Shown piece by piece: positions 21,115 through 58,557 of a stretch of 58,557 nt of DNA. Numbering within the stretch: position 1 is the first letter of the stretch; each line of letters begins with the position of its first letter. The notes under the pieces were generated by a model that saw only the letters and a program-made list of their open reading frames with translations, made no database searches and was not told the DNA's origin. Source of the DNA: Thermoplasmatota archaeon (GTDB lineage Archaea; Thermoplasmatota; E2; JACPAO01; JAHFTW01); assembly GCA_049617695.1 (NCBI GenBank), contig JBMZJT010000001.1, positions 1 to 58,557 on the forward strand, given 5' to 3'. Made by a program: the position numbers and the translations under genes.

Positions 21115-21187
21115 AGCCGCTGACGTGATTTGAACACGTGACCTGCTGATTACGAATCAGCTGCTCTACCAACTAAGCCACAGCGGC
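21115..21187 (-). tRNA. tRNA-Thr (anticodon CGU)
   Basis: The reverse complement folds as a cloverleaf. Acceptor GCCGCUG/CAGCGGC, D arm GCUU/GAGC, anticodon stem GCUGA/UCAGC with loop UUCGUAA, T arm ACGUG-UUCAAAU-CACGU. No CCA is encoded. Confidence 0.9.
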
Positions 21188-55436: not shown

Positions 55437-55530
55437 CCGCTCAACCCCGCACAAATCCTTGGTGAACCGATGCTCCGCTGAACGAAACAAAGGCAATACG
55501 CCTGCGAAGGCGCCGTTGGCAGGATGTGAA
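55437..55530 (-). repeat. distal 94-nt copy of the tRNA-Asn T-loop-to-3'-end plus 74-nt downstream flank
   Basis: 91 of 94 positions are identical to 55571..55664 at an offset of 134 nt. The mismatches are at 55464, 55480 and 55526. Confidence 0.9.
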
Positions 55531-55553
55531 TGCAAACGCCCACGTTTGCATTC
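55528..55553. repeat. perfect 11-bp-stem hairpin GAATGCAAACG-CCCA-CGTTTGCATTC (conserved module, copy 1)
   Basis: Read directly from the sequence. The same module occurs at 57332..57357 when both are read in the orientation of their tRNA. Confidence 0.9.
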
Positions 55554-55570
55554 GGAGCGAGGTATTCGCT

Positions 55571-55664
55571 CCGCTCAACCCCGCACAAATCCTTGGTCAA
55601 CCGATGCTCCGCTAAACGAAACAAAGGCAATACGCCTGCGAAGGCGCCGTTGGCAGGATTTGAA
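55571..55664 (-). repeat. proximal 94-nt copy (includes the genuine 3' 20 nt of tRNA-Asn)
   Basis: See 55437..55530. Positions 55645..55664 belong to the intact tRNA. Confidence 0.9.
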
Positions 55665-55716
55665 CCTGCGACCCTCGGATTAACAGTCCGATGCTCCACC
55701 ACTAAGCTACAACGGC
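55645..55716 (-). tRNA. tRNA-Asn (anticodon GUU)
   Basis: Reverse-complement cloverleaf. Acceptor GCCGUUG/CAACGGC, D arm GCUU/GAGC, anticodon stem UCGGA/UCCGA with loop CUGUUAA, T arm GCAGG-UUCAAAU-CCUGC, discriminator G. Confidence 0.9.
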
Positions 55717-55816
55717 AGAGCAGGCGTATCACGTGCCTCAGGGGCACAATCGCCGCCGACTTGGGTCTCCATCATAACCGTTTCTAACCAGCCGGCGCCG
55801 AATCAAGGCCAAACGG

Positions 55817-55824
55817 TTTCAAAT
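55817..55824 (+). promoter_or_regulatory. TATA-like box (TTTCAAAT) about 26 nt upstream of the ATG at 55846; suggests a leaderless transporter mRNA
   Basis: The call is based on position and A/T richness only. Confidence 0.3.
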
Positions 55825-55845
55825 CCCGCCTCCCGTCGTCAGCCG

Positions 55846-57171
55846 ATGGCAGGTCGGGGAGCGTTCAACAGTCGCATCGGTTTCATCATGGCAGCCGTAG
55901 GCAGCGCCGTGGGGCTGGGCAACCTCTGGCGGTTCCCGCAATTGGTCAGTGAAAGTGGCGGCGCGGCGTTTGTGCTGCTCTATCTCATCCTACTGTTTGT
56001 CATCGGCTTGCCGGCTTTGCTTGCCGAATTGAGCATCGGTCGCAAGCGCGGCGTCAATGCCATCCAAGCCTTCAGCGTTGTCAAGGGACGCAACTGGGGT
56101 TGGATTGGCATCATCTACATCTTCACCGCCGTCCTGCTGCTCTCCTATTACTCCGTGGTCGCTGGGCATGCCTTGCGCTACCTCGCGGAAAGCTTCACAG
56201 CGCCCTATTTCGATGCGCCCGGCGACTACTACGCAGGCATCGCAAGCGGCGGGCCGGCCATCATCTACCACGCCTTGTTCATGCTGATCACCATCGGCAT
56301 CCTCGTTCGCGGCGTCGGCCCCGGCATCGAAAAGGCGAACCTCGTCATGATGCCGTTCCTGTTCCTGTCGGTCGTCGCCATTGCGATTTACGGCCTGACC
56401 CTGGACAGCCCCGGCTTCGAGGGCTTCAAATTCTACACCGAGCCCGATCTCAGCGCCCTGACCGCCGGTGGATTCAGTGGCACGGCTGCGCTCCTGGGCG
56501 ACGCCGCGGGCCAGACGTTTTTCAGCATCGGCCTCGGGTTGGGTACCATGCTGACGTACGCCAGCTACATCGACCGCAAGAGCGACCTGCAAAGCACCGG
56601 CATGACCATCGGCTTTGCCGACACCGGTGTCGCCGTCATCGCCGGCCTCATGGTCTTCCCGCTGCTCTTTGGACTCGGCCTGGGCGGTCTTGCCGAGGAA
56701 GGCAACGGTCTCTTCGTCGCACTCCCCGCCGCATTTGCTGAAATCGGCGGCACCCTCGGCGGCGTCTTTGCGGGCGGCTTCTTCCTCCTGCTCGTTTTTG
56801 CTGCTCTGAGCAGCGCCTTGAGCCTCCTGGAAGTGCCCGTGAGCTACATCATCGACCGGACCAACTGGGGCCGCCCCCGTGCCGTCTTGCTGATGGGCCT
56901 CAGTGTCTACGTTTTGGGCCTCCCGGCAGCCCTGTGGGGCGATTACATGGACTTCGCGGATTCCTTGGTCGGCCCGTTGCTCCTGCTCGGTGGCTTCCTG
57001 CTCGCCATTTACGTGGGCTGGCTCGATCGCAGCATCCTCGATGAAATGCGCATCGGCGCCAAGCGCGACTGGGGCAAGATGTGGGCGAGCATCATCCGCT
57101 ACCCGCTGCCTGTGGTGCTGGGAAGCCTGTTCATTTTCTCCGTGATTGGGTTCTTCCGCAACTTATTCTGA
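55846..57171 (+). CDS. sodium-dependent transporter, neurotransmitter:sodium symporter (SNF/NSS) family
   Basis: RIGFIMAAVGSAVGLGNLWRFPQLVSESGGAAFVLLYLILLFVIGLPALLAELSIGR is the NSS TM1-TM2 signature. The protein has about 11-12 TM helices. Confidence 0.9.
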   Translation: MAGRGAFNSRIGFIMAAVGSAVGLGNLWRFPQLVSESGGAAFVLLYLILLFVIGLPALLAELSIGRKRGVNAIQAFSVVKGRNWGWIGIIYIFTAVLLLSYYSVVAGHALRYLAESFTAPYFDAPGDYYAGIASGGPAIIYHALFMLITIGILVRGVGPGIEKANLVMMPFLFLSVVAIAIYGLTLDSPGFEGFKFYTEPDLSALTAGGFSGTAALLGDAAGQTFFSIGLGLGTMLTYASYIDRKSDLQSTGMTIGFADTGVAVIAGLMVFPLLFGLGLGGLAEEGNGLFVALPAAFAEIGGTLGGVFAGGFFLLLVFAALSSALSLLEVPVSYIIDRTNWGRPRAVLLMGLSVYVLGLPAALWGDYMDFADSLVGPLLLLGGFLLAIYVGWLDRSILDEMRIGAKRDWGKMWASIIRYPLPVVLGSLFIFSVIGFFRNLF

Positions 57172-57195
57172 GCCGGGGCAAGCCCCGATTCATAC

Positions 57196-57278
57196 GCGGG
57201 GGTGGCGGAGTTGGCCAAACGCGCCCGACTTAAGATCGGGTCCTACGTGGTTCGCAGGTTCGAGTCCTGCCCCCCGCA
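57196..57278 (+). tRNA. tRNA-Leu (anticodon UAA), class II with long variable arm
   Basis: Acceptor GCGGGGG/CCCCCGC, anticodon stem CCCGA/UCGGG with loop CUUAAGA, a variable arm, T arm GCAGG-UUCGAGU-CCUGC, discriminator A. Confidence 0.9.
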
Positions 57279-57309
57279 TTCTGTTGTTTTTGGGGGTTGT
57301 GCGTGGTCG
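57262..57309 (+). repeat. proximal 48-nt copy: last 17 nt of tRNA-Leu plus 31-nt downstream flank
   Basis: 42 of 48 positions are identical to 57359..57406 at an offset of 97 nt. All six differences are C/T transitions. Confidence 0.85.
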
Positions 57310-57331
57310 AGCGTGGCGAGTGCCGCGCTCC

Positions 57332-57357
57332 GAATGCAAACGTGGGCGTTTGCGTTC
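57332..57357. repeat. hairpin GAATGCAAACG-TGGG-CGTTTGCGTTC (conserved module, copy 2)
   Basis: Read directly from the sequence. It has one G-U wobble relative to the perfect copy at 55528..55553. Confidence 0.9.
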
Positions 57358-57358
57358 T

Positions 57359-57406
57359 GAGTCCTGCCCCCCGCATTTTGCTGCTTTCGGGGGTTGTGTG
57401 CGGTCG
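57359..57406 (+). repeat. distal 48-nt copy of the tRNA-Leu 3' end plus flank
   Basis: See 57262..57309. It ends 2 nt before the stop codon of the convergent ABC-2 permease gene. Confidence 0.85.
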
Positions 57407-57408
57407 TA

Positions 57409-58443
57409 CTAGAGGCGATCCATCTTGAGGCTGCGCGTCGTCCAAGCAATGGCCAGTGTCAGGGCGCCCGCGGCTGCGGCGGCGAGGCCTATGACGACCC
57501 GCCAAGTTGTGCCATCAGCGACGCCTTGGGCGAGCCGCGCGATGAGATTCAATGGATCTTGGGGCAGCGCGGCACTGGCCAGTGCAAGGCTCAGCAGCAA
57601 GACGGCATAGGCGGCCTGGGTCAGCGATTCGTCGCGAACCACGCTGGCGACCCAGGTGCCGAGGCTTGTCAGCAGGATGCCGAGGATGGTGGCCAATGCA
57701 AGCACTGGACTCGGGTGCGGCGTGGCAAACCCATTGATCCAGAAGAGGCCCAGCCACAAGATGACCTGGATGGGCACGAGAAGTACAGGAATGGCCAGTT
57801 TGCCGATGACAATCCGCCAGGCGCCAAGGGGTGCGGCGCGCAGGAGAAGCAGGCTGCGGCTCTTGGATTCCTGGCTCAATGCATCTCCGGCGATGGCGCC
57901 GCTTAGGAAAACCGGCGTGATGACCAGAAGCGGCAGGAGTGTTGCATGCACGAATGTGTACGGCCGATCGGGTCGAATGTCTCGATCCAAGTGTTGCAAC
58001 TCATGATCGAGCCGGTCTTGCCGCTCCGTTTGGAGGCGTTGCTCGTAGTCCAGGAGCAAGTCACGAAACTGGGTGACGAGCAAGGTCGCCTGGATTTCGC
58101 CGTCGGCGACGACGAGCGTGATGTCTCTGGCGTCTTCGCCCCGTTCCTCGACGATGGCGTCGATGCTGCCAGCTTGGAATGCTTGCAAGGCGGCCGATCC
58201 ATTGAGCCGGACCACATCGAGGTTCGGGGCACGTTCGAGGTGCAAGTCGAATCCGCCGGGGCCGACGTAGGCGATGTCGGCGTCGGGTTGGCCGCCCACG
58301 CTGCCCGGGTCATGCAGGGCGGTGAGGCCCGTGAGCAAGAGCGCACTAAAGCCCGCAAGGACGGCTTGCACCAGGAACGCCGTGATGAGGCTCTTTTCCC
58401 GCAGGACGTCCCGCAATTCCTTGCGCAGGAGCGCGCCAATCAT
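57409..58443 (-). CDS. ABC-2 type transporter permease (NatB-like)
   Basis: 344 aa. N-terminus LLRKELRDVLREKSLITAFLV, a long extracytoplasmic loop, then five hydrophobic helices. The ATG overlaps the upstream gene stop (ATGA). Confidence 0.6.
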   Translation of the reverse strand: MIGALLRKELRDVLREKSLITAFLVQAVLAGFSALLLTGLTALHDPGSVGGQPDADIAYVGPGGFDLHLERAPNLDVVRLNGSAALQAFQAGSIDAIVEERGEDARDITLVVADGEIQATLLVTQFRDLLLDYEQRLQTERQDRLDHELQHLDRDIRPDRPYTFVHATLLPLLVITPVFLSGAIAGDALSQESKSRSLLLLRAAPLGAWRIVIGKLAIPVLLVPIQVILWLGLFWINGFATPHPSPVLALATILGILLTSLGTWVASVVRDESLTQAAYAVLLLSLALASAALPQDPLNLIARLAQGVADGTTWRVVIGLAAAAAGALTLAIAWTTRSLKMDRL

Positions 58444-58557
58444 AGCACCCCTCCGAGCAGCACTTGATCATAGATGCCATGCACGGCCAGCGCGGCGAGC
58501 AACCCAAGCACGGGTCGCCCACGGGTCATGCCGATGGCGAGCATACCGGCCGTGATG
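58440..58557 (-). CDS. 3' end of a membrane protein gene running off the window (possibly a second ABC-2 permease)
   Basis: Hand translation of the frame ending in the TGA at 58440..58442 gives ...ITAGMLAIGMTRGRPVLGLLAALAVHGIYDQVLLGGVL*. It is hydrophobic and partial. Confidence 0.3.
   Translation of the reverse strand, partial: ITAGMLAIGMTRGRPVLGLLAALAVHGIYDQVLLGGVL

Follow-up and report, generated by a model that had tools for sequence, protein, structure and literature searches.

The duplicated 3' end of tRNA-Leu(UAA)

The tRNA-Leu(UAA) gene of the thermoplasmatotal archaeon studied here is followed by a partial second copy of its own 3' end, which raises the question of what has entered the DNA behind the gene, and by which route. 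Partial tRNA copies are usually taken as the footprints of kilobase-sized viruses and plasmids. Here, the DNA between the copies is a 60-base hairpin repeat that is found behind a quarter of the tRNA genes of the assembly, and about half of the tRNA genes carry a scar. The genome (designated G000) comprises 1.67 Mb in 72 contigs, is 85% complete, and has an archaeal 16S rRNA; the window, that is, the whole stretch of 58,557 nucleotides that was analyzed, is a part of its contig C1. A gene for an SNF-family transporter lies upstream of tRNA-Leu(UAA), and the locus itself consists of the following features.

57196..57278, + strand: intact tRNA-Leu(UAA) gene, CCA not encoded (ARAGORN; Rfam tRNA model, 60 bits)
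57257..57309, + strand: proximal copy of the repeat, with T-loop GTTC, T-stem 3' strand, acceptor 3' strand and discriminator (to 57278), trailer with a T5 run (57279-57295) and module left box (57296-57309)
57296..57358, + strand: module M (nhmmer match at 57295-57357, E 3.6e-18; folds; pair counts on 14 copies), with left box GGTTGTGCGTGGTCG
About 57309-57330: hairpin A of M, GAGCGTGGC-GAGT-GCCGCGCTC, followed by a conserved linker and GAAT
57332-57357: hairpin B of M, GAATGCAAACG-TGGG-CGTTTGCGTTC, with one extra T at 57358
57359..57406, + strand: distal copy of the repeat, a dead relic, with pseudo tRNA 3' end (57359-57375), trailer copy (57376-57392) and diverged copy of the module left box (57393-57406)
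57409..58443, - strand: convergent gene for an ABC-2 family permease, the stop codon of which (57409-57411) is 2 nt from the distal copy

As the preliminary description had reported, 57262-57309 and 57359-57406 are identical at 42 of 48 positions, and all six differences (at 57281, 57284, 57287, 57291, 57302 and 57304) are C/T; the best 48-nt window in 100 shuffles of the 600-nt region had 31 matches. When one 1-nt gap is allowed, the repeat extends 4 nt to the left and reaches the T-loop GTTC, where GTTC-GAGTCC of the tRNA corresponds to GTTCTGAGTCC of the distal copy; the start in the T-loop with an extra T, described earlier, was thus confirmed. The restriction to transitions, to which the description had drawn attention, is real and carries little weight: the 31-nt flank is composed of 18 pyrimidines and 13 G with no A, so that the pattern is just mildly unusual (P of about 0.04 that all six differences fall on pyrimidines). 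The spacer at 57310..57357 is, as had been proposed, a hairpin module, but its real limits are wider, from about 57296 to 57358, and consequently the last 14 nt or so of each repeat copy resemble the left part of the module itself. The 5' half of a tRNA is absent before the distal copy, which neither ARAGORN nor Rfam calls. The distal copy is a dead relic, and a conserved RNA role for it is rejected.

It had also been suggested that the T-rich tail of the distal copy serves as terminator of the ABC-2 permease gene. The usual archaeal termination signal is oligo-T on the coding strand. The tail lies on the + strand and the gene on the - strand, the minus strand downstream of the stop codon is A-rich with no T run, and a simple scan of both strands returned 0 terminator-like sites; the suggestion was therefore abandoned.

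Both junction sides of the insert are independently supported. Logan contigs of run SRR27204715 match 55630-57322, and Logan contigs of SRR27204715 and SRR32540796 match 57338-58557, including the distal copy, all at 100%. All of these matches break inside the repeated core of the module, and the 15 nt at 57323-57337 are covered by the genome assembly only. An assembly artefact was considered and rejected, as the copies differ at six sites and the assemblies of two independent runs agree. No polymorphism between empty and filled sites was seen among the two to three runs that hold the same population (exact-protein look-ups); every such run carries the insert, so that movement of the module is deduced and was not observed. 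Empty-site alleles were also sought through close relatives of the SNF transporter in metagenomes, and only homologues of at most 39% identity were found.

The sister locus at tRNA-Asn (55437..55716, - strand) has the same order of tRNA, trailer, hairpin module, partial tRNA 3' end and trailer copy, and the common architecture claimed for the two loci was borne out, including the shared module and the start of the partial copy at the T-loop. Its parts are as follows.

55643-55716, - strand: tRNA-Asn
55571-55664, - strand: proximal copy
55528-55592, - strand: module
55437-55530, - strand: distal copy, 91/94 identical to the proximal copy

A hairpin module repeated in the genome

When a profile of the spacer was searched with nhmmer, 15 copies of about 60 nt each were found in the 1.67-Mb genome. 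This genome-wide nature of the module, hereafter called M, is a point absent from the preliminary description. In M, a left box, (GTTGT/CAT)GCGKGG, is followed by hairpin A, the conserved segment GCCRCGC-YCC-GAAT, and hairpin B. Hairpin A is variable, and the changes in its inner stem are compensatory (CTCGGC/GCCGAG, TTCGAC/GTCGAA, CGCGC/GCGCG and others). Hairpin B, a 7-bp stem with a TGGG loop, is nearly invariant: its 7-bp core is paired in all 14 aligned copies, with double changes at three pairs (GC to CG, CG to GC and AU to CG), and the flanking GAAT/GTTC pairs hold in 9 to 11 of the 14, copies within one genome not being independent data points. In 13 of 15 copies, G.U pairs make the fold of the tRNA-sense strand better than that of the opposite strand, which points to a single-stranded form of the former, either RNA or DNA.

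A scan against Rfam 15 matched only two tRNAs and nothing on the module up to E = 1, and M as a member of a known RNA family was rejected accordingly. It is not a C/D-box sRNA either, as C and D boxes occur, by accident, in the Pro copy only. Pairing of the trailer with the distal tRNA end in a closing helix, which would give a tRNA-like three-way junction, is predicted at Leu, Asn and Glu, and weakly at Ser and Val-CAC; it is not predicted at six other loci and was discarded as a general feature.

Positions of M and the duplicated sequences

Ten of the 15 copies lie 15 to 55 nt behind tRNA genes, all in the orientation of the tRNA: Leu-UAA, Asn, Pro-UGG, Ser-GGA, Val-CAC, Val-GAC, Arg-GCG, Gly-GCC, Glu-CUC and Met. 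The number expected by chance is about 0.02 (40 tRNAs x 120 nt in 3.3 Mb, both strands). A further two copies, located where contig C40 ends, lie on either side of a tRNA-like 3' end, the gene of which would be beyond the contig. After each tRNA-linked M comes the 3' end of that very tRNA, starting at position 54 to 59 of the T-loop or in the 3' strand of the T-stem, and then a copy of its own trailer. The remaining three copies, at protein genes, are also located between local duplications, of about 19 to 47 nt. The duplications are listed below.

tRNA-Arg: 42 nt
tRNA-Pro: 51 nt
tRNA-Ser: 51 nt, 51/51 identical
tRNA-Leu: 52 nt
tRNA-Glu: 61 nt
tRNA-Met: at least 68 nt, reaching the contig end
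tRNA-Val-GAC: 77 nt
tRNA-Asn: 94 nt, 91/94 identical
tRNA-Gly and tRNA-Val-CAC: badly diverged
Contig C23, not at a tRNA: 47 nt, including the last 11 codons and the stop codon of an ORF
Contig C41, not at a tRNA: 44 nt, between the stop codon of a gene and codon 6 of the gene that follows; the target starts with the T-loop-like GGTTGCAATCC
Contig C21, not at a tRNA: about 19 diverged nt of a gene end

At tRNA-Ser, the duplication takes in the last 13 nt of a convergent Rce1-like gene, and both genes are whole, each on a different copy. M units in tandem were found at Met and on C40. The lower identity at Leu than at Asn (87% versus 97%) had been read as the sign of an older event. This is plausible, but age cannot be read from identity alone, since loci with badly diverged duplications (Gly and Val-CAC) have retained hairpin B without change and the copies at tRNA-Ser(GGA) are 100% identical within each of two genera.

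The right end of M is GCGTTC, or CGTTTCG in a variant, and meets the T-loop with 0 to 2 odd bases: the junction is GTTC-T-GAATC at Val-CAC, C40 and Leu, GTTC-AC-ATC at Asn and Pro, and GTTC-CG-AATC at Ser. Thus, M and the T-loop have GTTC or TTC in common at the joint. The left junction is not sharp, with 1 to 13 variable bases between the end of the duplication and GCGKGG. At six loci (Leu at 57393-57406, Pro, Glu, Asn, Val-GAC and Met), the distal copy continues into 11 to 33 nt that resemble the left part of M.

Six further tRNA genes have partial 3' copies around other hairpin modules, namely Leu-GAG (C4), Asp (C11), Tyr (C12), Arg-CCG (C15), Gly-UCC (C33) and Ser-UGA (C18), and partial copies were thus found at about 18 of the 40 tRNA genes of G000. 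Some of these six loci have an inverted plus a direct copy of the tRNA end, and the module at tRNA-Asp has GCCGCGC-GAAT-hairpin in common with M. On contig C28 (14941-15198), the final 100 nt of a protein-coding gene, down to the TGA, occur twice around a different 58-nt module with two hairpins. Nine of the 10 differences between these copies are synonymous, and the silent copy must accordingly have been under coding constraint for most of the divergence.

Orthologous loci in relatives

In G001, which belongs to the same genus, the order tRNA-Asn, SNF transporter, tRNA-Leu is kept, and neither tRNA is followed by a module or a second copy; the tRNA-Leu(UAA) sites of G003, G004 and G007 are empty as well. 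The absence of both module and second copy from these four orthologous loci agrees with the earlier view that the Leu repeat is a duplication and not a conserved structured RNA. Other genera have unrelated inserts: these were found behind tRNA-Leu(UAA) in G013, G017 and G012 and behind tRNA-Leu(UAG) in G024, and in all of them hairpins are surrounded by the tRNA end in one inverted and one direct copy. At tRNA-Ser(GGA), about 13 of the 27 loci in the family have a partial copy, around diverse modules. G003, of another genus, has there a single M-type module, the border of which is the same; one compensatory pair distinguishes its hairpin B, and the two copies of the duplication are identical. 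At the far end of that duplication, 8 nt (TGCGGGGC) belong to the native coding sequence of the convergent gene and double as the 5' arm of hairpin A. The sequence of hairpin B is otherwise almost confined to G000, and a search of metagenome contigs and viral contigs found no module.

In G013 and G004, two members of one genus, the sequences downstream of the divergent tRNA-Asn and tRNA-Leu genes are swapped, as if a segment had been inverted between the 3' ends of the two tRNAs. One exact match to the 22-nt hairpin B is present in DKNS01000127.1 (1323-1344), a partly masked contig of a Flavobacteriales MAG, apparently in coding-like sequence; this match may be due to chance or to a mis-binned contig.

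Candidate enzymes

In the 85%-complete G000, no Y1 transposase (PF01797), TnpB (PF07282), reverse transcriptase (RVT_1) or Cas1 was found, and no larger element with the ends of M. An enzyme could have been missed because the genome is 85% complete and repeats assemble badly. A single-copy ORF of 437 aa (C5:35939-37252) has a weak match to DDE_Tnp_1 (24 bits), with no inverted repeats, no NCBIfam match and no link to M. The one tyrosine integrase of G000 lies within a classical integrated element of about 9 kb (C34:3743-12818) in tRNA-Pro(CGG), next to the distal repeat. This element has a G+C content of 54-60%, against 63%, and a direct repeat of 24-26 nt from the T-arm, and the flanks beyond the tRNA are not duplicated.

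Two other routes were examined and dismissed. Integration of the casposon or CRISPR type was rejected, as no Cas1 was found in the 85%-complete genome and the length of the duplications varies. The junction pattern would fit a target-primed, SINE-like retroposition, but RVT_1 is absent from G000 and a reverse transcriptase is present in only 1 of 32 genomes of the family.

Origin of the tRNA-Leu scar

We conclude, with a probability of roughly 0.9, that the Leu locus is the scar left by the insertion of a repeated module and the accompanying duplication. M would have been copied in at a distance of 15 to 55 nt behind the tRNA gene, with its right end attached to the T-loop behind G53-C56 or slightly farther on. 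The stretch between T-loop and trailer end would be synthesized twice in this process, so that M comes to lie between the tRNA with its trailer and a partial 3' end with a second trailer. The tRNA remains whole through the proximal copy, and the distal copy, having no function, drifts.

As to what drives the process, we tentatively prefer homology-guided template switching to a dedicated enzyme, at somewhat less than even odds. During replication or the repair of a break, a DNA end at the T-loop would anneal to the right end of an M already present in the genome (GTTC-N-GAATC), which resembles a T-loop, copy M, and return to its own trailer through a short match with the left box of M (GCGKGG). 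Later gene conversion, unequal exchange and decay between copies would then yield tandem arrays, identical copies and diverged copies. The same product could come from an enzyme that opens the two strands 40 to 95 nt apart. Template switching is favored because the duplicated trailers are specific to each locus, the left border is fuzzy, short sequences are shared at both joints, and no enzyme is linked to M, all of which count against a classical transposon or integrase; the tandem units, as well as the inverted copies in relatives, also fit. The 8 nt in G003 that equal the 5' arm of hairpin A would count in favor of homology at the far end. Template switching alone, however, leaves unexplained why the same module has been captured repeatedly and in one orientation, and why its hairpins are conserved by compensatory changes with hairpin B unchanged at old loci. 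In addition, the module-like stretches of 11 to 33 nt at the ends of distal copies are too long for chance microhomology, so that an extra assumption is needed, namely that they are older module relics or an overshoot of gene conversion. Repeated capture of a single module in a fixed orientation, together with hairpins that are maintained and a hairpin B that stays the same even at old loci, suggests that the module itself is under selection or that an unseen enzyme is at work. It is possible, though doubtful, that M and its relatives represent a new class of tiny, enzyme-free archaeal mobile cassettes that home to the T-loop, which is universally conserved, and to gene ends and rebuild the gene end by duplication. 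Such cassettes might be spread by host replication and repair or by a trans-acting enzyme that reads single-stranded hairpins.

An unlikely, though by no means negligible, explanation is that M is a miniature non-autonomous transposon, for which a transposase acting in trans nicks the T-loop and, 40 to 95 nt downstream, the other strand, so that fill-in leaves long and variable duplications. M is multi-copy, small and devoid of an ORF, its structure is conserved, and its preference for target and orientation is strong; the perfect 51-nt duplication at tRNA-Ser has clean borders, and one DDE_Tnp_1-like ORF is present in the genome. There is also a precedent in IS1634 and IS1549, the target direct repeats of which range from 8 to 514 bp and vary in length between copies by a mechanism that is not known (PMC2266710). 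On the other hand, M has no terminal inverted repeats and an ill-defined left end, part of the element lies inside distal copies, no larger element carrying its ends was found in the assembly, and the DDE ORF is single-copy, weakly scored, without inverted repeats and unlinked to M. Conserved hairpins with G.U pairs would moreover be unexpected if M were bound as double-stranded DNA. We regard it as improbable that the two copies are the attL and attR sites of a tyrosine integrase. M together with the proximal tRNA end and trailer would then represent either a very small integrative cassette or what is left of a larger element, having replaced the 3' end and pushed the old one downstream. Duplication from the T-loop to the 3' end of a tRNA is the classical signature of integrases (PMC9897764), and the 9-kb element in tRNA-Pro(CGG) has its repeat from the same T-arm position. 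The nine of 10 synonymous differences on C28, as if the ends came from diverged alleles, and the swapped flanks of tRNA-Asn and tRNA-Leu between G004 and G013 would also suit it. Against it, one module is found behind at least 10 different tRNAs as well as at protein genes and is always accompanied by the end of the local gene, the trailer of 15 to 55 nt is also duplicated, unlike at the genuine element on C34, there is no cargo, and the sole integrase found lies within its own element. Furthermore, 97-134 bp is a very short length for a unit that would have to recombine as a circle.

It is very improbable that the unit is not mobile and has been kept as a functional RNA or DNA signal, for example as a trailer structure or as a processing or termination signal for the tRNA or the convergent gene. 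The compensatory conservation of the hairpins, the better folding of the tRNA-sense strand, and the invariance of hairpin B at old loci speak for such a role, and M is probably co-transcribed with the tRNA, as several loci have no T5 run between the two. However, the nearest genome lacks the unit at the orthologous Leu and Asn loci, the sequence of M is almost confined to the species of G000 and has no Rfam match, neither strand has a terminator-like site, the T-rich tail being on the wrong strand for the ABC-2 gene, and distal tRNA ends decay (Gly and Val-CAC).

Comparison with known systems

The M loci share with attL/attR tRNA duplications the repeat from the T-arm to the 3' end (the last 17-21 nt at Leu), the intact gene, and the partial copy downstream. 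They differ in that the copies of attL/attR elements are 9-23 kb apart, whereas those at M loci are separated by about 48 to 63 nt with no ORF, integrase or cargo; the non-tRNA trailer is also duplicated, and one module is found at many different tRNAs. Like M, IS1634 and IS1549 make target duplications of tens of bases and of variable length, but these are bacterial insertion sequences of 1.5-2 kb with inverted repeats and a DDE transposase, both of which M lacks, and M targets tRNA T-loops. No element of the IS1634 type was identified in the 85%-complete G000. MITEs and REP/REPIN sequences resemble M in being small, non-coding, multi-copy, hairpin-forming and located at gene ends. However, MITEs have inverted ends and short duplications of fixed length, in contrast to the lack of inverted ends in the 14 aligned copies of M and its duplications of 19 to 94 nt, and REPs make no duplication and depend on a Y1 enzyme (RAYT), which was not found in G000.

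Templated insertions with a local duplication that result from template switching in replication (FoSTeS/MMBIR), and quasipalindrome-templated changes, have in common with the M loci the microhomology at junctions, the duplicated target, the variable borders, the inverted segments (seen at related loci) and the lack of an element-encoded enzyme. Such events are usually unique, whereas the capture of M is recurrent; to our knowledge, recurrent capture of one conserved module at one target class has not been described. The "transposed" bulge-helix-bulge (BHB) introns in tRNAs of Thermoproteales are, like M, small structured units at several tRNAs, T-loop positions included. These introns are inside the tRNA, whereas M is outside an uninterrupted tRNA. 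M was also rejected as a BHB intron on structural grounds, as hairpin B is a continuous helix of 7 to 11 bp that does not contain the two 3-nt bulges.

Implications

The pattern of M points to an undescribed route by which tiny DNA modules can be inserted into genes that stay intact. Provided that they move, the modules rank with the smallest mobile units known and show how an essential gene can be entered without harm. If they are by-products of repair, tRNA genes would be break-and-copy hot spots of archaea and a source of new trailer structures. Should a class of mobile cassettes exist as outlined above, the tRNA trailers and gene ends of whole archaeal lineages would be stacks of successive insertions. 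Such relics confuse the annotation of tRNAs and break metagenome assemblies, and the contigs examined here indeed stop inside the module.

Other observations on tRNA trailers

The tRNA-Thr(CGU) gene in the window (21115-21187) has neither a module nor a second copy of its end. A sense motif, TYAGCGGAG, is present in the trailers of at least 10 tRNA genes (e.g., at 55594-55606 and 55460-55472 of the window). In antisense it reads L/I/S-R-stop, and only at tRNA-Ser(GGA) does it coincide with the real end of a gene, namely the convergent Rce1-like one.
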